Assembly (NCBI GenBank): GCA_036501385.1
Contig: DASYAK010000009.1
Span: forward strand, 37,739 to 101,738
Length of the DNA stretch: 64,000 nt
Origin: Gemmatimonadales bacterium
GTDB taxonomy: Bacteria; Gemmatimonadota; Gemmatimonadetes; Gemmatimonadales; GWC2-71-9
Reading direction: 5' to 3'
In this document: piece after piece, positions 3,129 through 48,610 of the stretch
Numbering within the stretch: position 1 is the stretch's first letter
Layout: each line of letters begins with the position of its first letter
The notes under the pieces: model-generated
What the model was told of the DNA's origin: nothing
The model's input: only the letters and a program-made list of their open reading frames with translations
Databases searched by the model: none
Made by a program: the position numbers and the translations under genes

Positions 3129-5540
3129 CTAGCCGAGCCGCAGCTTCAGGCGCGCGGCACGGACGTCAAGCACTTCGCGAACTTTTCGGAGCAGCACCAT
3201 CGGCGTGTAGGGTTTCTGCAGAAAGATCGAATCGGCGCCGAGGATGCCGTGGTTGATCACCGCGTCACGAGCGTAACCCGACGCGAAGATGATCGCGATG
3301 TCAGGCCGGCTGGCGCGGAGACGGTCGGCCAGTTCAGGTCCCCCCACCAGCGGCATGATGACGTCGGTCACCAGCAGGTCGATACCATCCGCGTTGTTGG
3401 CAGCCAGTCGATATGCCTCCTCGCCGTTGGCCGCAACCAGCACCCGGTAGCCATGCCGCTCCAGCGCACCGGCGGCAAGCTGGCGGACCTCGGCCTCGTC
3501 TTCGACCACCAGAATCGTTTCGTGTCCGCCAGCCGCCGGCGTGGCGGATCGGTCGCCAGCATCGGGCTCAACCGGCTCACTTGTCACGGGGAAATAGAGC
3601 TTGAACGTCGTACCGGCGCCGGGTTCGCTGTAGACCCAGATGTGCCCGTTGCTCTGATTGACGATGCCATGGACCGCGGCGAGGCCCAGTCCGGTCCCCC
3701 GACCCACTTCCTTGGTTGTGAAGAACGGTTCGAAGATGCGTCGTTGAATCGCCTCGTTCATGCCGGTGCCAGTGTCCGTGATCGCGATCAGGACATACTC
3801 ACCGGGTTTCACCGCGGGTCGGCGCAGTGCGTAACTCGCATCAAGGTCGACATTGGCGGTCTCGATCGTGAGCGAACCGCCGCCCGGCATCGCGTCGCGC
3901 GCGTTGAGCGCCAGGTTGAGAATCACCTGCTCGAGCTGGCCTGGATCGACGTAGATGGGCCTGATGTCGCGTCCGAGCGACAAGGTGAGGCGGATATCCT
4001 CCCCGATCACGCGCCGTAGGAGCTTGCCGGTCCCTTCGACGACGCTGTTGGGATCGAGGACTCGAGGCTCCATCAGTTGCTGCCGACCGAAAGCCAGGAG
4101 TTGCCGCGTCAGCCGCGCCGCGCGCATCACGTTTCGGTCGATCTCCTCGAGCGACTCTGCGGCCGGGTGGTCGAGCGGAAGTACGGCCGACGCCGTTTCA
4201 GCGAAGCCGAGGATTGCTGTCAGGATGTTGTTGAAGTCGTGGGCGATCCCTCCGGCCAGGATGCCAATTGCTTCCATCTTCTGCGCTTGCTGGAACTGCT
4301 GCTCGAGATTTTTCCTCGACGTCACGTCGATCACGGCCGTGACGATCTCGACTGGACGGCCCGCGTAGTCGCGCACGACGGTGGGATGCGAGTTCATCCA
4401 GCGGTACGAACCATCGGCGTGACGTAGCCGGTATTCCAGCGAGACCGTCCGCCCCGAAAGGACATTCTCGAATTCATGCAGCGTGCGGTCCAGATCATCG
4501 GGGTGAATCTGCTTCTGCCACCAGCCGGGCCCCTGTACCTCTGCGACCGAGTAACCGAGCATTCGGGTGACGCCTTCGGTGACAAGGCTGAACACGGTCG
4601 GCGCCCGCGTCGGACTCTCGGGGGACAGTGGAACGGAAAGCAGCGTGGCCGCGCTCGATGCCAGGACATGCTCAAGTCTGGCGCGCGCCTCGTCGAGTTG
4701 CGTGTTCGATCGGCGCAGGTCGTCTTCGGCCTTCTTGCGGGCGCTGATGTCGACCACCGACGCAAGCACCAGCAGGCCGTCCGGCGTGGTGATCGGGTTC
4801 AGGCCGATTTCGACCGGCACCGCGCTCCCGTCCTTGTGCTCGCCAAAAAGGTCGCGCCCGACCCCCATGAACCGGCGGGCAGGGTGGGCGACAAATCCGG
4901 CTCGCAGGCCGGGATGGGCCGCGCGGCTCGGCGACGGAACCAGCCGTTCAACCGGCGAACCGATGAGTTCGTCGCGCGAATAGCCAAAGAGTCGCTCGAT
5001 CTCGCGGTTTACATACTGGATTCGTCCACCGGCATCCACGATCATCATCCCGTTTGGCGCCGCTTCGATCGCGAGCGTGAAGCGGGCCTCCAGCGACTTG
5101 CGACCGGTAATGTCGCGCGCGATTCCCGACGAACCGATCAATTCGCCGTCGTCAGAGCGGACCGGCGAAATCGTTAGCGACACGTCGATGTCGCGGCCAG
5201 CCTTGGTGCGCCGCACTGTTTCGACGCCGCTGACCGGAGCCCCCGCGCGCAATCGTTCGAGAATCTGCTGCAGTTCGGGGCGCTGTTGCTCCGGAACGAC
5301 CAATTCGATGTGACGGCCGATCGCTTCGACCGCGGTGTAGCCGTACATCCGTTCCGCGCCAGGATTCCAGGAGGTGATGATGCCGTCAAGAGTCTTGGTG
5401 TAGATCGCGTCGCTGGAAGACTCGATGATGGCGGAAAAGAGTCGCAGCCGCTCGGCGTCGCCGGATGGCGTCCGGCGCTCAGACATTCTCGTGACCAATG
5501 CTGGCGCACGAGGCCCGATGACGCCGCTCGCCGCCGACAA
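3129..5540 (-). CDS. Hybrid sensor histidine kinase (multiple PAS domains, HisKA, HATPase_c, C-terminal receiver)
   Basis: 803-aa ORF with repeated PAS-like segments. The H-box is GGIAHDFNNILTAI, and N/G boxes are present (DTGTGM, GTGLGL). The receiver is ILVVEDE...LLVTDVIMP. The start is uncertain: TTG at 5540 or ATG at 5486. Confidence 0.9.
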   Translation of the reverse strand: MSAASGVIGPRAPALVTRMSERRTPSGDAERLRLFSAIIESSSDAIYTKTLDGIITSWNPGAERMYGYTAVEAIGRHIELVVPEQQRPELQQILERLRAGAPVSGVETVRRTKAGRDIDVSLTISPVRSDDGELIGSSGIARDITGRKSLEARFTLAIEAAPNGMMIVDAGGRIQYVNREIERLFGYSRDELIGSPVERLVPSPSRAAHPGLRAGFVAHPARRFMGVGRDLFGEHKDGSAVPVEIGLNPITTPDGLLVLASVVDISARKKAEDDLRRSNTQLDEARARLEHVLASSAATLLSVPLSPESPTRAPTVFSLVTEGVTRMLGYSVAEVQGPGWWQKQIHPDDLDRTLHEFENVLSGRTVSLEYRLRHADGSYRWMNSHPTVVRDYAGRPVEIVTAVIDVTSRKNLEQQFQQAQKMEAIGILAGGIAHDFNNILTAILGFAETASAVLPLDHPAAESLEEIDRNVMRAARLTRQLLAFGRQQLMEPRVLDPNSVVEGTGKLLRRVIGEDIRLTLSLGRDIRPIYVDPGQLEQVILNLALNARDAMPGGGSLTIETANVDLDASYALRRPAVKPGEYVLIAITDTGTGMNEAIQRRIFEPFFTTKEVGRGTGLGLAAVHGIVNQSNGHIWVYSEPGAGTTFKLYFPVTSEPVEPDAGDRSATPAAGGHETILVVEDEAEVRQLAAGALERHGYRVLVAANGEEAYRLAANNADGIDLLVTDVIMPLVGGPELADRLRASRPDIAIIFASGYARDAVINHGILGADSIFLQKPYTPMVLLRKVREVLDVRAARLKLRLG

Positions 5541-5867
5541 ACGGGACGAGTTGGAATAACCCGATGCAAGTGCACCGGCAGTGAACCGTCAGGAGAATCG
5601 CCATAATCGACCGGGAAGGGCCGCCGACCGCGGCAGTGAAATTGTTTGCGGTATCCTATGGTACGGCGCGTGGCGCGAAACCGCAAATCATTGCGAATAT
5701 GACGATTGGATAACACATGCAAGCTGACCGCATTATGACATTACCATCATCAACGAGATGCAAGACTCAAGTTCGACAAGATTCCTTGATAAGTCCTGCA
5801 TCACAATTTCCGAACGGCACCGGCGGGGCTGAACAGGGCTGATGAGTCTTGCCACTAGATTTCCGGC

Positions 5868-6137
5868 ATGAAGCCCAAGCCGCTCATCACCGTCGCCGTG
5901 ATCCTGGCCTTCATCGCCTTCCTCGCCTGGTCCACCCTGTCGGCCCAGAAGGTGACCTGCAAGGTGTGCGTCGCCTACAACGGCAAAACCAACTGCGCCA
6001 CCGCATCACACGAGAACCAGGCCGAGGCCGCGAGGTCGGCCCAGACCACCGCGTGCGGGCCGGTTGCCCAGGGGATGAACGACGCCATCGCCTGCCAGCG
6101 CCGCGAGCCGGTTTCGCAGCAATGCCAGGCCACTTAG
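5868..6137 (+). CDS. Small membrane-anchored Cys-rich protein, unknown function
   Basis: 89 aa with an N-terminal TM/signal anchor (ITVAVILAFIAFLAW) and 6 Cys in the exported part. Third-position GC is high. No family recognised. Confidence 0.55.
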   Translation: MKPKPLITVAVILAFIAFLAWSTLSAQKVTCKVCVAYNGKTNCATASHENQAEAARSAQTTACGPVAQGMNDAIACQRREPVSQQCQAT

Positions 6138-6342
6138 CCGTAAGCCCTTGCAGGGTATTACTTTGGACGACCATTCCTGCACAGCGGCTCGGGCTCCACG
6201 ACTACCGGAACGCCACCGTCCCCACCATTGTTATATCGACTGCAAAGGGCCCGGAGTCCGGTCGGACCTCGAAGCGGCCGTGGCCCGGATCGTGAAGCAC
6301 GCGATCAGCGGCAGGAACCAGGGAAGGACAACCAGGAAGCTG

Positions 6343-7317
6343 ATGAGCCTGACAGACGCAGCACGACGGATGGCGCGGAAGGTCGAGGTCCTTCGCGACC
6401 TCGAAAACACCGTCCATGAGATGATGGTCGAACACGATCGCAAGCGCGAGCTCTGGTTTCCCAGCGAACTGCTGGCGCCGGCTCCCGGCGTCGACGCCGA
6501 CACGCATCTCAAGGCCTTGCGCGAACGCGTCGCCGGAATCCCCGATGCGTGCCGCGCGGCACTCGCCCTCAATACGCTGACCGAGGAAGGGCTGCCCCAT
6601 TTCCATCGCATCATCGCCGTGTATCTCGGCGAGGATTCGCACTGGCGCAACTGGAACAACCTCTGGACCGCCGAGGAAGACCGCCACGGGACCGTCCTGA
6701 GCGAATACATGCGCGACACCAATGTCGTCGATCAGCGCAAGATGGAGCAGCTCAAGTTCGAATACATCAAGGCGGGATTCAATCCGGAGTGGGACAAGGA
6801 TCCGTATCGCGTCTTCGTCTACACCACGCTGCAGGAGCGAGCCACCCAGTTCTCGCACGCCAACACCGGCCGCGTGATCGAAGAGTACGAGCCGCTCCTG
6901 GGCGGAATTCTCGCCAAGATCGCGATGGAAGAGGCGCGTCACTTCACCTTCTATCGCAAGGTCTTCACCGAGATCCTCAAGCGTGATCCGAGCGAAGCAC
7001 TCCGTTCGGCCGCGCAAGTCCTCCCGGCGATCGACATGCCCGGCGTCACGATCCCCGGGTTCAAGGAATTCGCCGACGTGATCCGGCGGTCGGGGATCTA
7101 CGGCCCCCGCGACTATCTGCGCATCGTGCAGGACCAGCTGGCGCACTGGAGAATCGAGGCGCTCGAAGGTCTCGACGAATGGGGCCGCAAGGCGCAGGAA
7201 CGGATGCTCGAAGTTCCCGAACGCCTCAAGCGGATCGCCGATCTCATGGAGACGCGTTCTCGCGCCAAGACTTTCGCGTTCGAGGTGGCATTCGCGCGCG
7301 AGTTCGTGATGGAGTAA
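6343..7317 (+). CDS. Soluble di-iron acyl-ACP desaturase family protein
   Basis: It carries the TAEEDRHG and MEEARHFTFY di-iron motifs and overall resembles plant/actinobacterial stearoyl-ACP (DesA-type) desaturases. The ATG at 6343, after a GGAAGG, was chosen over the upstream extension of ORF 6148..7317. Confidence 0.85.
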   Translation: MSLTDAARRMARKVEVLRDLENTVHEMMVEHDRKRELWFPSELLAPAPGVDADTHLKALRERVAGIPDACRAALALNTLTEEGLPHFHRIIAVYLGEDSHWRNWNNLWTAEEDRHGTVLSEYMRDTNVVDQRKMEQLKFEYIKAGFNPEWDKDPYRVFVYTTLQERATQFSHANTGRVIEEYEPLLGGILAKIAMEEARHFTFYRKVFTEILKRDPSEALRSAAQVLPAIDMPGVTIPGFKEFADVIRRSGIYGPRDYLRIVQDQLAHWRIEALEGLDEWGRKAQERMLEVPERLKRIADLMETRSRAKTFAFEVAFAREFVME

Positions 7318-14831: not shown

Positions 14832-16325
14832 ATGTCCCGTTTCGCCGTAGTCACCGCCCTCATTGTCGCAGTCCCTTTGGCGACCCGTGCCCCGCGCCTG
14901 AGCGCGCAGAGCGCGGCGGCGGTGACCCCGGTTCTCGACGCCTGGTGGAGCCGCACTTCGCACCGCTCGCCGGGAACCTGGGGCGTCGTTGTCGCCGACC
15001 AGAACGGCCATGTGCTCTGGCAGGTGAACGAAGACAATCCGATGATCCCCGCATCGACGGTCAAGGTTCTCACGACGGGTTTCACCCGGACTGCAGTGGG
15101 CGGCGACGCTCGGCGCGCGACCCGCGTGATCGGATCGGGACACATCGATTCGGCAACCGGAATGTGGGTGGGACGCTGGGCGCTCGAGATGAACGGCGAC
15201 CCGACGCTCGAACGCGCCGACCGGACCGGGCCCACGCTGGAACAACTCGCCCAGCAGCTCGCCGCGATCGGAATTCATCATCTGGTCGGGCCGCTCGACG
15301 TGACCACCAGTTCTGCCACGACCGTCGGTCAGCCACGCTCGATCTATCCGGCGGTCTGGTCGGATCGATTCCGCGGCCGGATCTACGCGCCGCCCATCGG
15401 CCCGATCACGCTCAACGAGAATGTCGTGTCGGTCACTGTTGGCCCCGGTGCCAGGATCGGCGCCCGCCCCGTCGTGATCGGTGATGCGCCGAGCGGAGTG
15501 GGCACGCTGGTCGACATGGCGGCCAAGACCGTCGCCGGCCGCGGAACAGGGCTCCATTTCTCGCCCGGCAAGGATGGACGTTGGGTGGTGAGCGGGAAGG
15601 TCGGCCTGCACGGTCGGCCCCGGCGCTTTGAAGCGGTGTCGTCGGATCCCACGGCAGTCCTCGAAGCCGCATGGCAGCACGCGACCGCCGCCGCGGGTAT
15701 CCAGTGGACCCGCGCTTCCGCAATGTCGGCGCCCGTGATGACCAATAAGCGCGTCCTCGCCGAAGTCGCCTCGGCGACGTTCGATTCGATCGCCCACGAG
15801 GTCAACACCCGGTCGCTCAACATCGGCGCCGAGATGATGCTGCTGTGGGGTGGGAGCGATCCGACCCCGGCCGACCAGCTCACCGATTTCGTTCGCAAGG
15901 TGACCGGGCTCAACGGCGTCCATCTCGTCGACGGGAGCGGGCTATCGGAAGAAGATCGCGTCTCGCCGATCGTCTTCACCACCTATCTGGCGAAGATTCC
16001 GCAGACGGCGGCCGGGAAGAATTTCCCGATGCTCTTCCCCGCCAACGGCTTCGGCACCTTGCGCCGTCTCGCGAGCGGGCTCCCCGAAGCAGGCGTGGTT
16101 CGCGCCAAGACCGGCACACTCACCAACGTCTCGACGCTGGTCGGTTATCTCGGCCGCGACGACGGGACGCTGATCATCGCCGCGATGTACAATGGCGGCG
16201 CCCAGTACGCCGCCAAGCAGGCGCAATGGGATCTCTTCCGCAAGCTCGGTGCGCACGGAGTTGTTGTTCCGGCAGATCTGGGCGAAGATGCCGCTCTTGG
16301 CGGACCGAGCGTCAACCAGAAGTAG
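14832..16325 (+). CDS. dacB: D-alanyl-D-alanine carboxypeptidase/endopeptidase, PBP4 (peptidase S13) family
   Basis: It has a signal peptide, an active-site ASTVK (SxxK) motif, and S13-like length and C-terminal KTGTL motif. The ATG at 14832 lies within ORF 14802..16325. Confidence 0.85.
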   Translation: MSRFAVVTALIVAVPLATRAPRLSAQSAAAVTPVLDAWWSRTSHRSPGTWGVVVADQNGHVLWQVNEDNPMIPASTVKVLTTGFTRTAVGGDARRATRVIGSGHIDSATGMWVGRWALEMNGDPTLERADRTGPTLEQLAQQLAAIGIHHLVGPLDVTTSSATTVGQPRSIYPAVWSDRFRGRIYAPPIGPITLNENVVSVTVGPGARIGARPVVIGDAPSGVGTLVDMAAKTVAGRGTGLHFSPGKDGRWVVSGKVGLHGRPRRFEAVSSDPTAVLEAAWQHATAAAGIQWTRASAMSAPVMTNKRVLAEVASATFDSIAHEVNTRSLNIGAEMMLLWGGSDPTPADQLTDFVRKVTGLNGVHLVDGSGLSEEDRVSPIVFTTYLAKIPQTAAGKNFPMLFPANGFGTLRRLASGLPEAGVVRAKTGTLTNVSTLVGYLGRDDGTLIIAAMYNGGAQYAAKQAQWDLFRKLGAHGVVVPADLGEDAALGGPSVNQK

Positions 16326-16350
16326 CGCGGCATCGTGGGTGGGGAAATGG

Positions 16351-16381
16351 AACAGCCGGTCGCAGTCAGCGGCCGGCTGTT
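16351..16381 (+). terminator. GC-rich hairpin downstream of dacB (intrinsic terminator candidate)
   Basis: AACAGCCGGTCGC-AGTCA-GCGGCCGGCTGTT forms a 13-bp stem with one mismatch, followed by GAGTTTC. It lies between convergent stops at 16325 and 16408. Confidence 0.6.
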
Positions 16382-16407
16382 GAGTTTCAGGCCTGTGTGT
16401 AGCTCGG

Positions 16408-17439
16408 TCAGCAGCTTATGGCGCCATTCGCGACGGTGGCGAACGGCGAGCTTGGATAGTTGTAATAGAGATGCACCGTGCCTGATGTGGATGCGGTGAA
16501 GAATGTGTCGGTGTACCCGATCGAATCACTGGTCGAGCCAGCAGCCGTGACGCCGGTGGTGTCAGATGACGGCGTCACATCGTAGACGAGATGCGGTGAG
16601 GCGTAGAGACTGCTGCGAATCCGGAACTTGTTTCCGCACACGTACGTGAGAGTGATCCACGACGTGTCGACTAACGTGTGCAGCATGTAATCCGTGTTGG
16701 CCCGCAGCATGAAGTACGCGGCGTCATTGATCACCGACCCGCCACCATACGTGCGGGCCGAGTCGAGAATGGCGGAGTAGCCCAATACCGAGATACTTGA
16801 CGCGTGCGAATAGCCTTTGAGGAAATTGCACCAAGAGGAAGCGGCTGTAATCCATCCGAGATTGCACGCGCCGGTGGTCACGACCCAGAGGTGATTGTAG
16901 ATGTTGAGCATCGTCCGGGACGTGGGGAAGGTATCCACGCCGACGGTTTGAATGATCTTGCTGAGGTCGGCGTACGGGTCGAGCGACGGAGCGTTAGCTA
17001 CGGCGACCGAATCGTCTTCGTCGACAACGGGCAAGCTGTCACCATGATACCACGCGGTCGCGATGCCCGGCAGGCCAATTGCCTTGAGAGTGAGTGTAGG
17101 AGTTGAATCTCCGGCACCGATCCCGGCGAGTGCCACCCACGACGCTCCAGTGATTCCGCTAAATAGCTTGCGAATGACCCACACCGAATCCGGGCTTGGA
17201 ACCACAATCATCGTCGGTGTCATCGTCAGCTTGATCTTGAACGACACCAACCGTTCGAGACTCCCCACATCGCTCAGAAGCGAATATGATACGATGGTCG
17301 TGTCCTGCGACATTGTGACGACACGAACTCGCGCGGTCGCGGTGAGGTTCGTGCCGGGGAGCGATTGCGCTTCGGCCCATTGTGTGTCGAAGCTAAGGAG
17401 GGCAATGATGCCTGCGAATAGCCGAGTCAAAGTTTGCAT
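16408..17439 (-). CDS. Secreted protein of unknown function (second gene of the low-GC cassette)
   Basis: 343 aa. The signal peptide MQTLTRLFAGIIALLSFDTQWAEAQ has an AEA-Q cleavage-like site. The ATG overlaps the upstream gene by 13 nt. G+C is about 50%. No family recognised. Confidence 0.8.
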   Translation of the reverse strand: MQTLTRLFAGIIALLSFDTQWAEAQSLPGTNLTATARVRVVTMSQDTTIVSYSLLSDVGSLERLVSFKIKLTMTPTMIVVPSPDSVWVIRKLFSGITGASWVALAGIGAGDSTPTLTLKAIGLPGIATAWYHGDSLPVVDEDDSVAVANAPSLDPYADLSKIIQTVGVDTFPTSRTMLNIYNHLWVVTTGACNLGWITAASSWCNFLKGYSHASSISVLGYSAILDSARTYGGGSVINDAAYFMLRANTDYMLHTLVDTSWITLTYVCGNKFRIRSSLYASPHLVYDVTPSSDTTGVTAAGSTSDSIGYTDTFFTASTSGTVHLYYNYPSSPFATVANGAISC

Positions 17440-19253
17440 GTTATCCCCAGTTCCTTACTCTGCTGAAGATGCCAATGCTCCTGGGGGGCGGGTTCAGGAT
17501 GGACACATCCGTGCAACGAATCATTCCAGAAGTCAAACACCCAGTTTTTTTCCATATAGGTGAGCGCACCAGGCGCGCCGGCTTTAGTCCTGATATCCGC
17601 GCTCCGTCCAGCGCGGTGCTCCACGTGCCCGCCGCTCCAGAGCTTCGCGGTATCGTAGTCGAAGCGCCCGCCCCAGGGGAGGCTCATATCGTTCAGAGGG
17701 AGCGGTTTGCCATGGTGTGCCGCCGCGAACGATGAAGCAAGCGTCGAAAGCATCGTTTCCATCGAGTCCGTGGCATAGTGACTGTCGGCTGTGGGGTGGG
17801 CGATCGTTGGACCAATCCACAATATCGTGCTCGACGAATCAACTCGGTGAAGGCCATCTACGCCCACTGCCAGCCTGGCCAGGGCGGTGTCAGCCGACAG
17901 ATACGTCGCGCGGATTGTCTCAGGGGCCGAATACTGAGAGGACCGATAGGTGAAGGTCCCAATGGAGTCGCCAGTGCTCACAGTAGCGGGCACTGTCCCC
18001 CGCGGCTTGGCTGGCCCGCCACTGACCCCAAAGTGATGATGACCATAGGAGCCGTCTGATCCGGAACCGCCGCTATCGACCGGAATTACAACCAGCCCAA
18101 TTGTGCGATTCGACAACGGGTGTCCCGCAGAGTCAATCCTGATCCTGAACTGCATTGAATCCGGCCACGCGGCGCCGGAGTATGTCGGCTTGATGTCAGC
18201 CCTGGCGAATTCCTTGGGGAGAAGGAGTGGAATGCCGTTGTTCATCGGTGTTGAGGCCGTATCGAACGAAATCACGATTCGCGGCTTCAGCGTGATCACG
18301 ACGTCGTACGCCACATAGTCGCTGTGAGCTGGGTTCAGGACAAGCATATTGATCGAACCGGAAAACGAAGCAGAATCGGGGTGATTGACTCCCGCCGAGT
18401 CGCTGTATGCAAAGTCCGAAAAGGCGAAGGCGCCGGACGAATCGTACGCGGTCGCGGTGTTGCCCACGAACGTCGGATCCTCTATCAGGATGTTCGCCGC
18501 TTGAATCGGCTTCGAAAAGGTGATGGCGATCAACCTCGAGGCACTGGTACCGCTATCACTCTGGAATTCTTCCGCGGACCAGGTACTTGGCGTGTAGAAC
18601 GGTGTGACCGCCCAGTCAACCGAGCCGCAAGTCCCGGTCGCGGCCGTGATCTCGCACACGGATGAATCGCCGCACGATCCACCTGAACAGAGTCGCGCGC
18701 GAGTCGCGAGAGCTGCCCGGTGCCAGGGTGTCGAGGCATGAGTCACCGAACCACCGGTGACCTGCTGAATCAGGCGGACATCGGCAGCCGGACGCCGGAG
18801 GGTGCCACGTCGTACGGAATACTTCACCCCGACCGATTGAGCGGTGGCAAATGAAAACACGTCGATGCTGGCAGGTAGCGTCTTGAGCGGGTACTCCTCG
18901 CTCGTGCCATCGACGTCGATCACGAGGGCGGCTGATGCGTCCGCTCCAGAAAGTTCGCCATTTGCGTTGATCGCGAGCGCGATCTGGTCGCCAGCGTGCC
19001 CGCTAACCTGAAACTCCGCAAGCCGGAGCAGTGCGCTGACGGAATCCTTGGCGCCGCCGGTTGCGGCGAGTGGAGTGGCGTTGTCGATGATCACACAGTC
19101 GGCGGAACAGAGGATGTTCCCGCCGGGAGTTGGAGCAGTGACTGGCCGATTGTTGACCAAGTCGGGGTCGGTCCAACACCCAACCACGCCGACAACTGCA
19201 CAAAGAACCACCCCGCACAGAAGCGCCGATCCGGCGCCGTTGCTCCATCGCAT
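17427..19253 (-). CDS. Lipoprotein with a C-terminal MepA/LAS-type zinc metallopeptidase signature (first gene of the low-GC cassette)
   Basis: 608 aa with a lipobox (VVGVVGC) and GGAGG 6 nt upstream of the ATG. The C-terminus reads LNDMSLPWGGRF...GGHVEHRAGRSADI...QEHWHL, which fits the H-x(6)-D plus H-x-H zinc ligand pattern of LAS peptidases. The N-terminal 500 aa are unrecognised. Confidence 0.85.
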   Translation of the reverse strand: MRWSNGAGSALLCGVVLCAVVGVVGCWTDPDLVNNRPVTAPTPGGNILCSADCVIIDNATPLAATGGAKDSVSALLRLAEFQVSGHAGDQIALAINANGELSGADASAALVIDVDGTSEEYPLKTLPASIDVFSFATAQSVGVKYSVRRGTLRRPAADVRLIQQVTGGSVTHASTPWHRAALATRARLCSGGSCGDSSVCEITAATGTCGSVDWAVTPFYTPSTWSAEEFQSDSGTSASRLIAITFSKPIQAANILIEDPTFVGNTATAYDSSGAFAFSDFAYSDSAGVNHPDSASFSGSINMLVLNPAHSDYVAYDVVITLKPRIVISFDTASTPMNNGIPLLLPKEFARADIKPTYSGAAWPDSMQFRIRIDSAGHPLSNRTIGLVVIPVDSGGSGSDGSYGHHHFGVSGGPAKPRGTVPATVSTGDSIGTFTYRSSQYSAPETIRATYLSADTALARLAVGVDGLHRVDSSSTILWIGPTIAHPTADSHYATDSMETMLSTLASSFAAAHHGKPLPLNDMSLPWGGRFDYDTAKLWSGGHVEHRAGRSADIRTKAGAPGALTYMEKNWVFDFWNDSLHGCVHPEPAPQEHWHLQQSKELGITCKL

Positions 19254-19362
19254 GCGCTACCTCCACATGTCGCGTGATTGCCGGGCAGCCCGTCTAACAC
19301 GGCGAGTGCCAGCGACCAAAGCTTCCGCCACGTGAACCCACCGCGCAATTGCTCAACCGGAC

Positions 19363-19382
19363 GATCACCCGATCGGGTGATC
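19363..19382. promoter_or_regulatory. Perfect 20-bp palindrome GATCACCCGATCGGGTGATC (three GATC sites); candidate operator or hairpin between the LuxR-type gene and the cassette
   Basis: It is exactly self-complementary and overlaps a second 12-bp palindrome, GGGTGATCACCC (19375..19386). It lies 8 nt after the LuxR-type stop and about 110 nt upstream of the lipoprotein ATG. No U-tract follows. Confidence 0.5.
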
Positions 19383-19389
19383 ACCCAAG

Positions 19390-19686
19390 TCAGTCAGGAT
19401 CACGTGTGCTCCAGAGGTTCCGCGCGATCTCCGAGAAGAGCACGCCCAGTTCGACGCGGCCGCCAAGCCCGACCCGTTTGTAGGTCTGATGGAGCAAGGA
19501 TCGAACGTTGTCGACAGAGCACCCCAGCTCGCGCGCGATTTCTGAGTTCTTGCAGCCCAGCGACACGTGTTCGGCGATCCGTCGCTTCTGCGGCGACGTC
19601 GCGAGCAATACGCGCAGACGACCAGCCTTTGCCTCATGAACTGCGGCACGATCGGCATCCAGAGGTACCACACGGGAGTGCGACAT
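19390..19686 (-). CDS. Minimal LuxR/GerE-family HTH transcriptional regulator (no receiver or ligand domain)
   Basis: The C-terminal 60 aa, [50 protein letters not shown], match the GerE HTH. The ATG at 19686 is preceded by AGGAG. A longer ATG-initiated frame (to 19863) runs through the pentanucleotide repeat. Confidence 0.8.
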
Positions 19687-19737
19687 CTTCGCTCCTGGCA
19701 GCGTGGCGGCCGGTGTACCAACTGATCCTCGTCGCGC

Positions 19738-19807
19738 GCGTGGCGTGGCGTGGCGTGGCGTGGCGTGGCGTGGCGTGGCGTGGCGTGGCGTGGCGTGGCG
19801 TGGCGTG
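19738..19807. repeat. Perfect pentanucleotide microsatellite (GCGTG)14
   Basis: 14 uninterrupted copies (70 bp), read directly from the sequence. It lies in the 252-bp divergent spacer between the LuxR-type gene (start 19686) and the Ser/Thr kinase gene (start 19939). Confidence 0.97.
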
Positions 19808-19938
19808 TGAGCATAGCCCACGGTTCGCGTTCCTGTCAACCGACGCTTCTGCCAGTAACTCATTCGTCACAACCAGCCCGGCGCCGTAGTCCCGTCCTCG
19901 ACCCGAGTCCCCCCACCCCATGCTATTCTATACGTCGC

Positions 19939-21858
19939 ATGAGCAACGCCGACCACCCCGACGACCTCTTCCTCGCCCTCCAGGAAGCGCTCGCCGGTCG
20001 CTACTCGCTCGAACGCGAGATCGGCCGCGGCGGAATGGGAATCGTCTATCTAGCCCGTGACGTCCGGCTCGACCGGCCCGTAGCGCTCAAGCTCCTCCCG
20101 CCCGAACGCGCCGCACGCCAGGATCTTCGCCAGCGCTTTCTCGATGAAGCCCGGATGGCCGCGCGACTGGCCCACCCCAACATCGTGCCGATTCACGCCG
20201 TCGAGGAAGCCGGGCCGTTCGTCTTCTACGCCATGCGCTATGTCGAGGGCGAAACGCTCGGCGAGCGGCTCCGGCGCGTGGGGAATCTCGGTCACCCCGC
20301 GACGATCCGGATCCTGCGCGACACCGCCTATGCGCTCGCGTACGCGCATGCGCAGCACGTGATTCACCGCGACATCAAGCCCGACAACATCCTCCTCGAA
20401 GCGGGTAGCGACCGCGCCGTGGTAACCGACTTCGGTATCGCCCGTCTGATGGGACAGGGCGACGATCTCCGTCACCCCGTGGTGGGAACGCCGGAATACG
20501 TGGCACCCGAACAGGCTGCGGGGCTCGAAGTCGACGGCCGCAGTGATCTCTACGCCCTCGGCGCCGTGGGATATCACTGCATCGTCGGCCGTCCGCCGTT
20601 CGAGGGCGACGTGCAGCAGTTGCTGGCGCAGCATCTCTCGCGCCGCGCCACGCCGTTGCTCGAGGCCGCGCCGGGCACGCCATCGATCTTCGCCACCGCC
20701 ATCGATCGCGCGCTGGAAAAGGATCCGCCGCTTCGCTTCGACACCGCCGAGGCGTTCGCCGAAGCGCTCGGCGCGTCGCTCAGCACCAGCGGCGATCTCC
20801 CGGTGCCGGTGCGCGTCTGGGTGGAGCGAGGGCGCGAACTCAAGGGGATCTACGTCATCTGGTCGTGCTTCTTCTACGGCATCGGTACGATGGCACTGGT
20901 TGGCGCGCTGCTCAACAGCAGCTGGCCGTGGCAGGCTGTGGTCTTCATGGGACTGTGCGCGGCATCGAGCGTCGCGCCCTGGATTGCGCATGGACTCTGG
21001 CGGCTGAGCGAAACGCGCAAGGCGATCGAGGCCGGGGCCACGCTCGACGATCTCCGCCACGGTGCGCTCGTGGCGCTCGAACGCCGCGAGGAAGAGCTGC
21101 GCTACGAGGCGTCGCGCGCGGTGCATCCGCTGGCGCGCCTGATCCGGATTCTGACCTACGGTGCCTTTGTCGCGGCGATCGGTGCGCTCATTGGCGGCGT
21201 GTTCATCAGCACGGGCGGCCGGATGTCACGGGAGTTCTTCGCGATCTTCGGCGCGTTCACGATGGCGACCGTTGGCGGCGCGCTCTTCGGGCTGGTCTTC
21301 CCGGGCCGGCGCGTCGGCATTCGCGATCATTTCGCGCGGCTGCGCCTCTGGTTCTGGAACTCGCCGCTGGGAGATCTTACCGGCCAGCTCGCGTCATTCG
21401 GCCTCAAACGCCAGGTCGTGCGGCGATGGACCGGATCGCGAAAGACCGAGACCGCGCTGGGCGACATCACGGCGACGCTCTTCGCCGCCCTTCCCCAGGC
21501 CGACCGCGCCACCCTGGCCGATCTTCCCGATGTTGTCGCGCGGCTCGAGGACGCCGCCGCTCGCGCCAGGAGTCACCTCGCCCACGGTGACGATCCGGCA
21601 TGGGCCGAGCGCTTGCAACGCGCCGTTGCGGCGATCGAGACGCTGCGCCTGGGCCTGCTGCGGATGACCACCGATCGCGCCGCGGCAACTTCGCTCAGCA
21701 CCGACCTCGACGCCGCGCGTGATCTCTCCGAACGGATCGGCTATCTGATCGAAGGAGCGGCGGAAGTCTCCGACTGGCTCGCCGGATCGGACGGTGGCGA
21801 CCAGAGGCGCACCCACGCGACACCAAGACAGAGGGCGGCGAGCACGTCACTCGGGTAG
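19939..21858 (+). CDS. Membrane Ser/Thr protein kinase (Hanks-type) with a 4-TM and helical C-terminal region
   Basis: Kinase motifs are GRGGMGIVYLA, VALK, HRDIKPDNILL, DFG and APE. They are followed by four hydrophobic helices and a roughly 180-aa Ala/Arg/Leu-rich tail. The ATG at 19939 was chosen; the upstream part of ORF 19750.. is repeat-derived. Confidence 0.9.
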   Translation: MSNADHPDDLFLALQEALAGRYSLEREIGRGGMGIVYLARDVRLDRPVALKLLPPERAARQDLRQRFLDEARMAARLAHPNIVPIHAVEEAGPFVFYAMRYVEGETLGERLRRVGNLGHPATIRILRDTAYALAYAHAQHVIHRDIKPDNILLEAGSDRAVVTDFGIARLMGQGDDLRHPVVGTPEYVAPEQAAGLEVDGRSDLYALGAVGYHCIVGRPPFEGDVQQLLAQHLSRRATPLLEAAPGTPSIFATAIDRALEKDPPLRFDTAEAFAEALGASLSTSGDLPVPVRVWVERGRELKGIYVIWSCFFYGIGTMALVGALLNSSWPWQAVVFMGLCAASSVAPWIAHGLWRLSETRKAIEAGATLDDLRHGALVALERREEELRYEASRAVHPLARLIRILTYGAFVAAIGALIGGVFISTGGRMSREFFAIFGAFTMATVGGALFGLVFPGRRVGIRDHFARLRLWFWNSPLGDLTGQLASFGLKRQVVRRWTGSRKTETALGDITATLFAALPQADRATLADLPDVVARLEDAAARARSHLAHGDDPAWAERLQRAVAAIETLRLGLLRMTTDRAAATSLSTDLDAARDLSERIGYLIEGAAEVSDWLAGSDGGDQRRTHATPRQRAASTSLG

Positions 21859-24294: not shown

Positions 24295-24668
24295 CCGTGC
24301 TCCTCCGCCCCGGTCACGTTGTCCTCCCAGAGCGCCAGCACGTTGCCATCGGGGTCGGCGACCAGCGCCATGATCCCGAAATCCTGCTGGGTCGGCTCGG
24401 CGACGAATCGGACTCCGAGTTCGCCCAGGTGCGAGCAGAGATCGAGGAGGGCCGGAACTTCGAGTGTGATTCCGGTATGCCGTCCGACCATCGCACGGGC
24501 ATCGGGATGCGCGGCTGGGTGAACACCAAGATGCGGCGCCTCGTCGAAGAACTCGAAGCCGAACGACCCCGCGGTATGCACGGGGAGGCCGAGCTGGTCT
24601 TCATAAAAGGCACGGGCCCGTTCGAGATCGGCCACGAAGACGGCGACACTTCGCAGTGATGCGGTCAT
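24291..24668 (-). CDS. VOC/glyoxalase family protein
   Basis: 125 aa with a VAVFVADLERARAFYEDQLGL N-terminus and a DPDGNVLALWE C-terminus. A 4-nt overlap links it to the downstream gene. Confidence 0.8.
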   Translation of the reverse strand: MTASLRSVAVFVADLERARAFYEDQLGLPVHTAGSFGFEFFDEAPHLGVHPAAHPDARAMVGRHTGITLEVPALLDLCSHLGELGVRFVAEPTQQDFGIMALVADPDGNVLALWEDNVTGAEEHG

Positions 24669-25615
24669 GGGGTTGTCGGGTCGGCGAGTTGAGGGTGAAG
24701 TGCCCGCAGATTGCGCCGCATTCCGGCGAGTCCGGTGCGCATCAGCGGCGTGTCGGCGAAGGTCTTGTCGAATGCCGCTTGATCCATCTGTTCGAAGAGC
24801 GACGGGTCGCGACGATCGGGATCGCGACGTTGCCGGAATTCGTCAACCGTCGTGGGTGCGGCGAACTTTACATTCCAGGGACAGACATCATTGCAGATGT
24901 CGCACCCGAACGCCCACCCATCGGCGTGAGCCATCGTCTCCGCCGGCAGCTCTCCCTTGTATTCGATGGTGAGGTACGAGAGACAGCGCGTCGCGTCGAG
25001 GACTCGTTCGTCGACGAAGGCACCGGTGGGACAGGCGTCGATACAACGGGTACACGATCCGCAGAGGTCGGTATTGGCTGGCGCGTCGGGCGCGACATCG
25101 AGATCGGTGAACACCGACCCGATGAAGGTGTACGACCCGACTCGCGGATGGATCAGCATGGTGTTTTTCCCGATCCATCCCAGTCCGGCGCGTTCGGCGA
25201 GTTCGCGATCGGGAACCGGCCCGTCGTCGACCCAGCCATGCGCAACCCCGGCACCGCGGGCCTTGAGCCATTCGGTGAGAATATGGAGCCGGCCGAGGGT
25301 GACGATGTGATAGTCCATCCCGCGGGCGTACGCCGCGATCTTGAAGGTATCGCCCGCCGTCGGGCGTTCATCGGGCCGCGGCGCATAGTTGTCGAGAACC
25401 ATCACTGCCGTGTGCGCGCCCGGCGTAATCGTCGCCGGGTTCTTCCGCTTCTTCGCCTGGCGATGCAGGTATCGCATCGTTCCGCCATAGCCGCGCGCGA
25501 GCCAGCGATCGAGCTCGGCGCCATGGCGATTCGCGTCGAGCGCCGTGATACCGCACGCCACGAATCCGATCCGCGCAGCCTCGGCCTTGATCTCCGCCGC
25601 GGGCACCGCCGTCAC
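24665..25615 (-). CDS. queG: Epoxyqueuosine reductase QueG
   Basis: It has two 4Fe-4S Cys clusters (CGSCTRCIDACP, CDICNDVCPWN) and the KNTMLIHPRVGSYTFIG motif. The GTG at 25615 overlaps the ndh stop (GTGA). The long upstream part of ORF 24665..26545 overlaps ndh out of frame. Confidence 0.85.
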   Translation of the reverse strand: MTAVPAAEIKAEAARIGFVACGITALDANRHGAELDRWLARGYGGTMRYLHRQAKKRKNPATITPGAHTAVMVLDNYAPRPDERPTAGDTFKIAAYARGMDYHIVTLGRLHILTEWLKARGAGVAHGWVDDGPVPDRELAERAGLGWIGKNTMLIHPRVGSYTFIGSVFTDLDVAPDAPANTDLCGSCTRCIDACPTGAFVDERVLDATRCLSYLTIEYKGELPAETMAHADGWAFGCDICNDVCPWNVKFAAPTTVDEFRQRRDPDRRDPSLFEQMDQAAFDKTFADTPLMRTGLAGMRRNLRALHPQLADPTTP

Positions 25616-26895
25616 GAGGCCGCACCTGTCGTCGGCGCAGGTTGCGCGACGTCGCCGGTGATCAAGCGCGCGCCGCGCGCGTAGGTGACGTACGACCACG
25701 CCCACTCGATCAGCACGAGTATGCGGTTGCGGAAGCCGATGAGATACGCGATGTGGAGAAAGATCCAGATCAGCCACGCGAAAAAGCCGCCGAACCTGAG
25801 ACCTGGCAGGTTGGCCACGGCGTCGCCACGGCCGATCACCGCAAGTTCGCCCTTGTTGCGATAATGGAACGGCACGCGCGGCCGCCCGGAGATCGTGGCG
25901 CGAATCGCTCGCGCGGCGTAGTCGCCCATCTGGATCGCAGCGGGGCAGACCGCCGGCACCGGCGCGCCATCGCCACGATCGCGACACGCGGCGGCATCGC
26001 CGAGCACCAGCACCTCGGGGTGACCGGGGATCGAGCAATCGGGCTCGACGATCACTCGCCCTTGTTTGTCGAGTGGCACGTTGAGCGTCCGGAGCAGCGA
26101 ACTTGCCTGATTGCCAGCCGCCCAGACCACCGTCGTCGTGGGAATCCGCCATCCGGCAGCTTCGACGGCATCGGGATGAATCGCCGTGACGAAGGTATTC
26201 TCCCGTACTTCGACGCCGAGATGGCGAAGATCGTTCTTGGCGCGCTCGGAGAGCGAAGGGGGATACGCTGCGAGGATTCGCGGCCCACCTTCGAGGAGGA
26301 CGACCGTCGCTTCGCGCGAATCGATGTGCCTGAAGTCCCGTGCCAGCGCAAAGCGCCGGATCTCGGCCAGTGCACCGGCAACCTCGACACCAGTTGGCCC
26401 GCCGCCCACGACGACGAACGTGAGGAGATGATGGCGCTTCGCCGGATCGGGTTCGCGTTCGGCGCGCTCGAATGCCAGCAGAATCCGCCGGCGAATCTCG
26501 AGGGCGTCTTCGAGATTCTTGAGTCCGGGCGCGAGAGGGGCCCACTCGTCATGTCCGAAGTACGAGTGGCGTGCGCCGGTGGCCACCGCGCAATAGTCGT
26601 ACGTAATGTCGGCGCCGTCTGCGAGATGCACGCTCTTGTTCGCCACGTCGACGCGAACGGCCTCGCCGAGGAGTACCTCGACATTACGCTGGCGGCGGAG
26701 GATCGAGCGGATCGGCGAGGCGATGTCCGATGGGTTGAGCGCGGCAGTCGCGACCTGGTAGAGCATCGGCTGGAAGAGATGATGATTCCGCCGGTCGATC
26801 AGCGTGATCCGCACTGGCGCGCGCTTCAGCGCCTTCGCCATGTAGAGACCGGCGAAGCCGCCGCCGAGAATGATGACATGAGGCCGATCAGGCAC
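25612..26895 (-). CDS. ndh: Type II NADH dehydrogenase (NDH-2), FAD-dependent
   Basis: 427 aa. It has an HVIILGGGFAG dinucleotide fold, a second VVGGGPTGVE fold, and NDH-2-like length and C-terminal membrane-anchoring helix. Confidence 0.88.
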   Translation of the reverse strand: MPDRPHVIILGGGFAGLYMAKALKRAPVRITLIDRRNHHLFQPMLYQVATAALNPSDIASPIRSILRRQRNVEVLLGEAVRVDVANKSVHLADGADITYDYCAVATGARHSYFGHDEWAPLAPGLKNLEDALEIRRRILLAFERAEREPDPAKRHHLLTFVVVGGGPTGVEVAGALAEIRRFALARDFRHIDSREATVVLLEGGPRILAAYPPSLSERAKNDLRHLGVEVRENTFVTAIHPDAVEAAGWRIPTTTVVWAAGNQASSLLRTLNVPLDKQGRVIVEPDCSIPGHPEVLVLGDAAACRDRGDGAPVPAVCPAAIQMGDYAARAIRATISGRPRVPFHYRNKGELAVIGRGDAVANLPGLRFGGFFAWLIWIFLHIAYLIGFRNRILVLIEWAWSYVTYARGARLITGDVAQPAPTTGAAS

Positions 26896-40548: not shown

Positions 40549-41199
40549 TCATCGATTCAGGAACCGCACGGCAGTGGTGTCGCGTGATCCCTTGCGACCA
40601 CGCGGCACGGCGCTGTCGGGCCGGGTTGCCGTCGTGTCGCGCCCGGCGGTAGTGGTGTCGTGGATTCCCTTGCGAAGCCGCGGCGCAGTGGTGTCGGCAC
40701 GCGCAGCGGTCGTGTCGACCGGGTCACCGTACTGGCGCGCCAGCACGCCCACTGCGACGAGAACGCGCCCGGCAGCCTTGTTGGTCGCCGGGACCTGGCG
40801 CTCGAGTTCTCGCGGCGACCGCGACGGATCGGCGGTCGGGAGGTACACCGTCTCAGCGGTAATGTTGGAGTAGTTGGGGCGCGACGGATCAACCCAGATG
40901 CGGATCTTGACGACGTCGGGGCCGAGGTGGCGCCGCGTCGTTGGCCGCATCGTGGTGGCGTCGAGCCATTCCGATTCGAGCCAGCCGTCCTTGACCATCG
41001 TGCGACGAATCGGAATCGAATCCTGATCGAGGAGCAGCGCGATCGCCTGGGTCGCCTCCCGAACGTCGAGTTTGACTTCGGTGACCGGGGCGTTGGGAAG
41101 CGGCACGAACGCTGGGCGCGTCGTCGTGGGAAAGCACGCTGCCATCGCGACCGCGGCGAGCGGCCACATTCGAAACGGCGGTCGTACCACGTCGGTCAT
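40549..41199 (-). CDS. Lipoprotein-like protein with a repetitive C-terminal tail (RKGxxDTT repeats)
   Basis: The ATG at 41199 overlaps the upstream stop (ATGA). The signal-like segment is MWPLAAVAMAACFP. The C-terminal 60 aa contain repeated DTTA/RKG motifs, encoded by imperfect tandem DNA repeats at 40570..40740. Confidence 0.7.
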   Translation of the reverse strand: MTDVVRPPFRMWPLAAVAMAACFPTTTRPAFVPLPNAPVTEVKLDVREATQAIALLLDQDSIPIRRTMVKDGWLESEWLDATTMRPTTRRHLGPDVVKIRIWVDPSRPNYSNITAETVYLPTADPSRSPRELERQVPATNKAAGRVLVAVGVLARQYGDPVDTTAARADTTAPRLRKGIHDTTTAGRDTTATRPDSAVPRGRKGSRDTTAVRFLNR

Positions 41200-45181: not shown

Positions 45182-45573
45182 CGCCGCTTCTTCCCCTTCT
45201 TGCCGCCACGTTTCGGCGCGCTCTTGCGTGCGGCCTTCCTGGCTGGCTTGCGCGCTGTCTTCTTGGCCACCTTGCGAGCACTCTTCTTGGCTCCCTTGGC
45301 GGCGCGCTTGCTGGCGGCCTTCTTCACGCTCTTGCTGGCGACCTTCTTGGCGGCCTTCTTAGCGCTCTTCTTCGCCACCTTCTTTGCAGCCGGGCGCTTC
45401 GGCGGTGCGGCCTTGGCCGCAGGCGCAGGCTTCGCCGCCTTCTTGCGTGGCTTCGAGGCGACCTTGCCCGGGGCGGGCTCGGGAATGTCGAACCGGGGCG
45501 ACGCCGCGGGCGTGGCAGCGGCCCCTTCGAGCGACCCGTACTGGAAGTCGAACGATCCTTCGCTCATCACCAT
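45178..45573 (-). CDS. Histone H1-like Lys/Ala-repeat (KKAAKK) DNA-binding-type protein
   Basis: 131 aa. The C-terminal 100 aa are almost entirely K/A/P/R/S repeats (AKKVAKKSAKKAAKKVASKSVKKAASKRAAKGAKKSARK). AGGAGAG lies upstream of the ATG. Confidence 0.75.
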   Translation of the reverse strand: MVMSEGSFDFQYGSLEGAAATPAASPRFDIPEPAPGKVASKPRKKAAKPAPAAKAAPPKRPAAKKVAKKSAKKAAKKVASKSVKKAASKRAAKGAKKSARKVAKKTARKPARKAARKSAPKRGGKKGKKRR

Positions 45574-48515: not shown

Positions 48516-48610
48516 GCCCGGAAGATACGGCTGTCCGGTTACAAAATGCGATCGAATCTATGGCGAGATCGGATTGGCCCGATCACGATCCGGTCGGGGA
48601 ATGTCGCGAG

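Follow-up and report, generated by a model that had tools for sequence, protein, structure and literature searches.

A candidate peptidoglycan-endopeptidase lipoprotein and its dedicated exported partner form a two-gene envelope module inserted downstream of dacB in a Gemmatimonadales genome

Main finding

Here we present a computational analysis of a 3.6-kb block lying between dacB and a Ser/Thr kinase gene in a stretch of 64,000 nucleotides (contig DASYAK010000009.1, hereafter the window) from a Gemmatimonadales bacterium. The block carries orf608, coding for a lipoprotein, orf343, coding for a Sec-exported protein, and a small luxR-type helix-turn-helix (HTH) gene. All coordinates are positions in the window, and L numbers denote loci fetched from other genomes or contigs for comparison. 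The explanation that we put forward, to which we would give about an even chance, is that orf608 and orf343 encode a polymorphic peptidoglycan-endopeptidase effector and its cognate immunity-like partner.

In such a system the lipoprotein would combine a shared N-terminal carrier with interchangeable C-terminal cell-wall peptidase domains, and the overlapping genes would constitute a translationally coupled two-gene envelope module. The partner would bind and neutralise the peptidase in the periplasm of the producer, in the manner of an immunity protein, while the lipoprotein would act as an antibacterial effector reaching neighbour cells by a route such as outer-membrane vesicles, outer-membrane exchange or surface exposure. 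The small GerE/LuxR-type HTH gene upstream, which is peculiar to the window genome, might govern the pair, with the 20-bp palindrome in between as a plausible operator. We infer the peptidoglycan endopeptidase activity, the inhibition by the partner, the use against competitors and the HTH control from sequence.

Results and discussion

A modular lipoprotein family with interchangeable tails

The N-terminal half of the orf608 product carries the motifs FQSxxGTGAS..ITITFS, DPTxxGN, PGxNxPDT and DYVAY and has no match among Pfam, NCBIfam or PHROG families. A preliminary description of this DNA, prepared from its letters alone, had regarded both large proteins as orphans. A word-indexed homology search seemed to agree, returning just 3 and 9 matches (9 for orf343); it missed homologues already known from neighbouring contigs, and the orphan status was rejected once 1.84 billion representative proteins had been searched exhaustively with a profile, which gave 2783 matches at E <= 1e-3 (1289 of them reach E <= 1e-10, and 150 reach E <= 1e-30). 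All the relatives that could be looked up are unnamed metagenomic sequence, and the few family members that could be placed belong to Gemmatimonadota.

When the top 150 relatives were sorted with half-specific hidden Markov models (HMMs), 17 contained both halves, whereas 73 lacked the C-half and 60 lacked the N-half. The sequence that follows the N-half in 81 proteins fell into 11 mutually unrelated tail clusters, four of which could be named, namely the MepA-like C-half of orf608 (18 proteins), Peptidase_M23 (E 1.4e-18), Peptidase_M15_3 (E 1.5e-11) and Peptidase_C39_2 (E 9.6e-9). All the nameable tails are peptidases; M23, M15_3 and the MepA-like tail come from recognised cell-wall-cutting families, and the remaining one is C39-like. 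These counts describe a modular lipoprotein family with swappable peptidase tails. The other tail types (7/11) have no recognisable family and may hold new enzyme activities.

Between carrier and peptidase, the Ig-like middle domain shows a G-H-x-H motif (GHHH, residues 404-407) that is invariant in the alignments of homologues, together with weak matches to Big_1 in 6/41 relatives and to Invasin_D3 in 3/41.

A divergent MepA-type peptidase domain

The LAS enzymes to which MepA belongs share the signature H-x(3-6)-D plus H-x-H, and MepA cuts D-Ala-meso-diaminopimelate bonds (PMC3927764). Both motifs can be recognised at the C-terminus of the orf608 product, the metal-binding motif as H546-RAGRSA-D553 and the downstream motif as H593-W-H595, where the close homologue in L003 has K-L-H instead. 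They lie within a block that reads ND-x-SL-x2-GG-x-FD ... H543-x2-H546-x2-G-x3-D553 ... H593-x-H595, and the five candidate active-site residues H543, H546, D553, H593 and H595 are all invariant in 30 diverse domains. Computed against the Escherichia coli protein, the residue spacing equals that of MepA H110, H113, D120, H209 and H211, whose roles as metal-site ligands we take to be those given by Marcyjaniak et al. 2004.

Peptidase_M74 was the sole enzyme-family match in Pfam; it is weak in the orf608 product itself, at E 0.06 and 13.3 bits where the cut-off is 25, and recurs in 10/41 relatives with a best E of 8.8e-5. A profile of 41 sequences searched against 177,635 PDB sequences ranked E. 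coli MepA (1tzp) first with E 0.02, aligned on exactly the metal-site block, whereas smaller profiles gave no match there; hhalign of a 30-domain profile against E. coli MepA returned a probability of 89% and E 2.2e-6 over 57 columns. Taken together, the M74 matches, the PDB ranking, the hhalign result, the spacing and the MepA-type metal-site signature led us to call the domain a divergent MepA-type LAS peptidase, with the activity predicted and the formal Pfam M74 cut-off missed. The C-terminal peptidase signature that had been noticed earlier in the larger protein is thereby narrowed to a probable cell-wall metallopeptidase domain. An enzyme of the MepA type would be expected to cut the peptide cross-links of peptidoglycan.

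An exported partner that follows the tail type

The signal peptide of orf343 ends in AEA, followed by QS, and its family has conserved Cys pairs and no match in Pfam, NCBIfam or PHROG. Two GDS motifs made a GDSL/SGNH hydrolase conceivable; this candidate was ruled out, as neither a His nor a Glu of catalytic type is conserved in the family and a catalytic block is lacking. Together with the lipobox Cys of the N-half proteins, the signal peptides of the partners and the conserved Cys pairs are signs of an envelope location.

Homologues of orf608 and orf343 stand next to each other, 2-5 nt apart or overlapping, in unrelated neighbourhoods. The pairs measure 598 + 353 aa in L001, 584 + 338 aa in L005, 640 + 324 aa in L006-L011 and 373 + 355 aa in L003/L004 (L003 being without the N-half), and L042 and L046 are further loci with an adjacent pair. 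The conserved core is a two-gene envelope module, not the trio of genes found in the window.

An HMM scan of all fetched loci found an orf343-like gene after every C-half gene with downstream sequence (window, L001, L003/L004, L005, L006-L011, L042, L046). Even L003 keeps the orf343-like partner despite its missing N-half. After N-half genes with other tails (L029-L041, L043, L044, L047) the count was 0, and each such gene is followed by a different small signal-peptide ORF (open reading frame), where the downstream ORF is readable. Over five types the correspondence of tail type and partner type is one-to-one, and in one case a pair of tails at 45% identity has partners at 40% identity. Tail type and partner type are strictly paired in these counts, a layout which, by analogy, is that of polymorphic toxin-immunity cassettes. 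The preliminary description had guessed at a peptidoglycan hydrolase with a partner or immunity-like protein, and orf343 can indeed be designated the dedicated partner of this C-terminal type.

Toxin-antitoxin genes flank the pair in two places (VapC/HTH_17 in L002, HigB/HTH_3 in L006). A gene with Muramidase and PG_binding_1 domains lies at L003 6677-7456, 1.4 kb upstream of the homologous pair.

Effector or autolysin

Several observations weigh against an effector with an immunity partner. Over 7 modules, partner identity tracks the N-half (r 0.93) rather than the C-half (r 0.46), which is not what a simple model of an immunity protein binding the peptidase domain predicts; LAS-domain identities are flat at 0.29-0.37 in the same comparison, and the co-divergence test therefore has little power. 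A length of 343 aa is large for an immunity protein, and the strict co-occurrence fits an obligate activator or localisation factor equally. No secretion-system genes were recognisable beside the pair in the contexts examined, a negative that extends to neither the genomes nor the rest of the window. As for the enzyme itself, the similarity to MepA is limited to about 57 columns around the metal site, and the Pfam scores do not reach the gathering cut-off. Structure prediction lent no help: the AlphaFold2 (AF2) models, built from shallow alignments, were poor for orf608 (pLDDT, the predicted local distance difference test, of 43.6; 30-44 in the LAS region) and for orf343 (59.5, with generic beta-sandwich matches only), and Foldseek against PDB returned generic beta-sandwich or jelly-roll matches at TM (template modelling) scores <= 0.5 and nothing specific. 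No functional conclusion is drawn from these matches.

The main rival is an endogenous autolysin with its regulator, which we consider rather unlikely though deserving of serious weight. The lipoprotein would then remodel the producer's own sacculus during growth, budding, division or stress, and the partner would be an activator, adaptor or localisation factor, as EnvC/NlpD are for amidases or NlpI is for MepS; inhibition would play no part, and other cells would not be attacked. Both proteins are predicted to remain in the envelope of the producer, an export or delivery system was not identified (among the genes next to the pair, the only ones considered), the partner is a large protein of several domains that diverges in step with the non-catalytic N-half, and the insertion adjoins dacB (PBP4), another DD-peptidase gene. 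Such a role is harder to reconcile with a pair that is absent at this locus in 13/13 related genomes and patchy in unrelated contexts, with an N-half fused to at least 11 unrelated tails with private partners, a cassette-like exchange that is not usual in housekeeping hydrolases, and with an atypical composition in most of the contexts checked.

Insertion at a plastic junction downstream of dacB

A scan with DacB retrieved 13 related Gemmatimonadales or Gemmatimonadota genomes with DacB identities of 53-79%. The metH-acd-dacB backbone is kept in 13/13, and none of the three block genes is present in the fetched stretch of any of the 13. The sequence beyond dacB differs among the closer relatives L015-L021, of which, besides the window itself, only L016 and L021 have the kinase gene after dacB. 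In L016 dacB is joined straight to the kinase gene by a spacer of 80 nt, followed by PAP2 and a beta-eliminating lyase as in the window; in L021 the spacer is 15 nt, and a periplasmic binding protein found in L021 only stands between PAP2 and the lyase. In L015 and L018 PAP2 follows dacB at once and the kinase gene is missing, L017 has a 6.4-kb insert whose genes include one for an AbiEii toxin, and in L019 an S8 subtilase lies in an insert of 3 kb. These differences mark the junction as a plasticity spot.

By these counts, the segment 16326-19938 has been inserted downstream of dacB, where the junction is plastic, and is specific to this lineage. The synteny of the dacB-to-kinase interval had been proposed as a check on acquisition, and it speaks for it: the block is absent in 13/13 relatives that share its flanks, and homologous pairs occur elsewhere in unrelated contexts. 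Of the other assemblies, L013 alone spans the locus, and it does not differ from the window over the region compared. An exact protein match assigns the window to a metagenome-assembled genome of the Gemmatimonadales.

Intergenic regions of Gemmatimonadales contain heptamer arrays (GAGAGAC / TCTCGTC) in an inverted, hairpin-like arrangement, with sites at about 11450-11520 of L016 (its dacB-kinase spacer), at 324-351 of L007 and at 1-28 of L008, one of the sites lying upstream of an orf608 homologue. They may represent a lineage-specific intergenic repeat element.

Base composition

The window has a G+C content of 0.657. Its 1-kb minimum is 0.567 at 16601 and its 2.8-kb minimum 0.591 at 16251, and both of these lowest windows lie inside the block, so that the difference from the flanks anticipated for a sliding-window profile is confirmed. 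Of the 44 ORF-genes of at least 200 aa in the window, none is poorer in total G+C than the two large genes, at 0.575 and 0.602 (mean 0.660, sd 0.023); in G+C at third codon positions (GC3) they are only second and fourth lowest, at 0.680 and 0.710 (mean 0.775, sd 0.049). At codon position 1, which holds much of the deficit, the two genes have 0.50 and 0.58 and their neighbours 0.63-0.77, and therefore amino-acid composition contributes alongside codon choice. The anomaly of the two large genes is real and moderate, milder than the 52% implied by the hand-picked samples of the preliminary description; its hand counts were exact in four of five cases (31, 29, 32, 43), the fifth being 40 and not 41.

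The pair is also poorer in G+C than the flanking DNA in most of the contexts compared. The difference is clear in L003 (0.577 against 0.652), L005 (0.58 against 0.633) and L006 (0.584 against 0.62), slight in L042 and L046, and nil in the short L001 contig. The low G+C is therefore probably a family trait of the accessory module and not proof of a recent low-GC donor, and as the mark of a recent import it is not supported.

The inserted position and atypical composition, together with the frequency of LAS and M15 peptidases among phage endolysins, could be taken for a remnant phage or mobile-element lysis cassette, that is, an endolysin-like LAS peptidase with an accessory protein. This reading is already disfavoured and appears highly improbable to us. 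Neither large protein matches any PHROG family, no phage, integrase or transposase gene was recognisable among the genes called beside the pair in the examined contexts, and lipoprotein and Sec signals with a conserved N-terminal carrier are unlike endolysin architecture.

Elsewhere in the window, a second, shallower G+C dip (0.60-0.61) at 5001-6500 takes in the 5' end of a gene for a PAS-rich hybrid histidine kinase (3129-5540, minus strand), some intergenic DNA and the first part of an acyl-ACP-desaturase-type gene (6148-7317, plus strand). The lowest GC3 of the window (0.649) belongs to a 404-aa ORF at 24470-25681 (plus strand) with no Pfam match and an ordinary total G+C (0.654).

The luxR-type gene, the palindrome and the pentanucleotide array

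The 98-aa product of the luxR-type gene matches Sigma70_r4_2 (E 2.3e-6, 27.6 bits against a cut-off of 25.7) and GerE (E 2.6e-5, 24.2 bits against 23.5). Both models score just above their cut-offs, Sigma70_r4_2 slightly higher, which makes for a loose assignment within the HTH clan; no receiver or autoinducer-binding domain was found in the protein, which has no second domain. Its ATG at 19686 is preceded by AGGAG 5 nt upstream. A longer ORF through the repeat (19390-19863) was considered and set aside: it has no ribosome-binding site and would contain the sole promoter-like site.

The preliminary description had portrayed a cassette headed by the LuxR-type gene. That unit is not conserved: no LuxR-type gene lies beside the pair in L001, L002, L003, L005 and L006, the homologous loci with upstream ORFs that were compared, the loci of the related genomes are likewise without it, and in the window a spacer of 136 nt with a strong hairpin separates luxR from orf608. 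The gene is local to the window genome and stands outside the conserved module.

The palindrome GATCACCCGATCGGGTGATC between the two genes is unique, with 0 matches in shuffles even when 3 mismatches are allowed. It has the size of a LuxR-type operator and folds into a strong hairpin without a U-tract, which makes it a candidate operator or a candidate U-less terminator hairpin.

Upstream of luxR, the (GCGTG)14 array ends 52 nt from the luxR start codon and lies 131 nt upstream of the kinase start codon. It is the sole perfect short repeat of more than 5 copies in about 455 kb (window and fetched loci). L013 also has 14 copies and, being identical to the window over the compared region, is probably not an independent sample of repeat length; the L014 contig ends inside the array. 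A promoter-like site lies on one side of the array and the luxR ribosome-binding site on the other, and if that promoter is real the array would belong to the luxR 5' leader. Repeats in the 5' untranslated region (UTR) can drive phase variation in Haemophilus (PMC12721329).

These elements could be joined into one phase-variable unit, in which slippage of the array would switch the luxR-type gene or alter its leader and the regulator would act through the palindrome on the peptidase pair. Such an arrangement strikes us as improbable, more so than the autolysin. It would account for an exceptional perfect 14-copy array, for the position of that array, and for a palindrome of typical LuxR-type operator size between luxR and the pair, and it has the Haemophilus precedent. 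Against these stand the 14 copies in both array-spanning assemblies, a position outside the -35/-10 spacer if the predicted promoter is real and outside the coding region from the Shine-Dalgarno start, the lack of a conserved luxR gene beside the pair elsewhere, and the possibility that the palindrome hairpin merely terminates luxR transcription. Nor is the promoter match significant, with 2 promoter-like sites in the region against 1.2 expected.

All three frames stay open through the array, which gives long spurious N-terminal extensions to the kinase ORF (19750-21858) and to the luxR ORF (19390-19863) and could be a trap for automatic gene callers. Further repeats of the window are a 78-nt tandem repeat of 1.9 copies at 40569-40717 and nested 12-, 24- and 36-nt repeats at 45247-45391, apparently within a coding region.

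Coordinates and gene calls

The features of the block are collected in Table 1. The three co-directional minus-strand genes, with a 13-nt overlap of orf343 and orf608 (17427-17439), are exactly those first described, and the palindrome, the array and the hairpin next to dacB likewise lie where they had been placed. The neighbours had been named correctly as well, family searches giving Peptidase_S13/PBP4 (E 2.4e-48) for the dacB product and Pkinase (E 1.7e-42) for the kinase. The hairpin between dacB and orf343 has an RNA fold of -41.9 kcal/mol (z -3.83) and is terminator-like on both strands. As noted earlier, the edges are free of tRNA genes and direct repeats: the sole tRNA found sits at 48610 and no direct repeats flanking the block were found. 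The region has no Rfam match, and the block has no space for an integrase gene.

The 608-aa start of orf608 has GGAGG 7 nt before its ATG, and its lipobox Cys, behind a hydrophobic stretch, aligns with the lipoboxes of the homologues and of every N-half protein examined. The JGI call of the large protein (L013 7529-9196) gives 555 aa, leaving out the lipoprotein signal.

Table 1. Features of the dacB-kinase interval, in window coordinates
Feature	Position	Strand	Description
Lineage-specific segment	16326..19938		dacB stop codon to Ser/Thr kinase start codon; similarity to relatives resumes only at the kinase ATG at 19939
Hairpin between convergent dacB (+) and orf343 (-)	16344..16388		inverted repeat; 13-bp G+C-rich stem
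orf343	16408..17439	-	343 aa; Sec-exported partner protein
orf608	17427..19253	-	608 aa; lipoprotein
Putative MepA-type LAS zinc-peptidase domain of orf608	17430..17843	-	residues 471-608
orf608 middle domain	17844..18278	-	residues 326-470; Ig-like
orf608 N-half	18279..19175	-	residues about 27-325; beta-rich carrier module (about 300 aa)
Lipoprotein signal peptide of orf608	19176..19253	-	residues 1-26; lipobox VVGC; read from sequence
Perfect 20-bp palindrome GATCACCCGATCGGGTGATC	19363..19382		8 nt after luxR stop; last base 110 nt before orf608 ATG
luxR-type HTH gene	19390..19686	-	98 aa; single domain
(GCGTG)14 microsatellite	19738..19807		perfect; Tandem Repeats Finder score 140
Promoter-like site TTGACA-18-TATGCT	19810..19839	-	10/12 matches; directly upstream of the repeat

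Comparison with known systems

Gemmatimonadota are abundant in soil, and how they compete is almost unexplored. If the proposed effector and immunity-like partner are real, the carrier domain would mark thousands of effector-like lipoproteins, accompanied by a new immunity-like partner family and a divergent MepA-type peptidase, whose members now sit in databases as "hypothetical protein". The shared N-module could then be a search handle for cell-wall-targeting toxins and their antidotes in uncultured bacteria. Were the autolysin true, the interest would be lower and the modular family new all the same. In a broader and more tentative form, possible and yet doubtful, the N-module would define an undescribed, widespread family of polymorphic lipoprotein effectors, thousands strong in metagenomes, with swappable peptidoglycan-degrading domains and private exported immunity proteins, delivered between diderm soil bacteria by a route free of any dedicated secretion apparatus, for example vesicles or outer-membrane exchange, and placed here under a repeat-gated regulator.

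The enzyme is best compared with E. coli MepA (Peptidase_M74, LAS; PDB 1tzp, 1u10), with which the orf608 domain shares the metal-site block and the identical spacing, both being envelope proteins. MepA is a soluble housekeeping enzyme of one domain and has no partner gene of its own, whereas the domain described here makes up the last 140 residues of a 608-aa lipoprotein, behind an Ig-like GHxH domain and a 300-aa carrier; the alignable core covers about 57 columns, with Pfam scores under the gathering cut-off.

As a whole, the module recalls SitA/SitI of myxobacteria, which are polymorphic lipoprotein toxins (PMC5562445, PMC8546572). In each, a lipoprotein joins a constant N-terminal region to exchangeable C-termini that are toxic (here putatively so), a cognate immunity or immunity-like gene comes next, and the genes reside on accessory DNA. 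There is no demonstrated sequence relationship, the N-half has no Pfam or NCBIfam match, and no SitA profile was compared; nor did a TraA/TraB-type exchange system turn up, though none was sought. A further difference is that the nameable tails here are all peptidases, three of them from cell-wall-cutting families, and all partners have a signal peptide. The SitA toxins act mostly in the cytoplasm, where their immunity proteins also reside.

Periplasmic pairs of hydrolase and immunity protein are represented by Tae/Tai and Tge/Tgi of type VI secretion systems (T6SS) and by the Bdellovibrio DD-endopeptidases with their self-protection protein Bd3460. These resemble the present pair in a hydrolase gene beside a specific small exported protein, in tight coupling and in envelope products. 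The putative effector described here differs by its own lipoprotein signal, which stands in for a T6SS adaptor or a linkage to PAAR/VgrG/Hcp; beside none of the copies was a T6SS gene seen, and orf343 is unrelated to Pfam immunity families.

Polymorphic bacteriocins of the ColM family (PMC5821083) are likewise cell-wall-attacking toxins, whose N-terminal uptake or carrier parts are modular and which come with immunity genes. ColM, however, degrades lipid II and not cross-links, is soluble and secreted instead of a lipoprotein, and shows no sequence similarity. Set beside these systems, the module would be a variant of the polymorphic effector-immunity kind, with a carrier domain and a partner family unmatched in the libraries searched and a divergent LAS peptidase.

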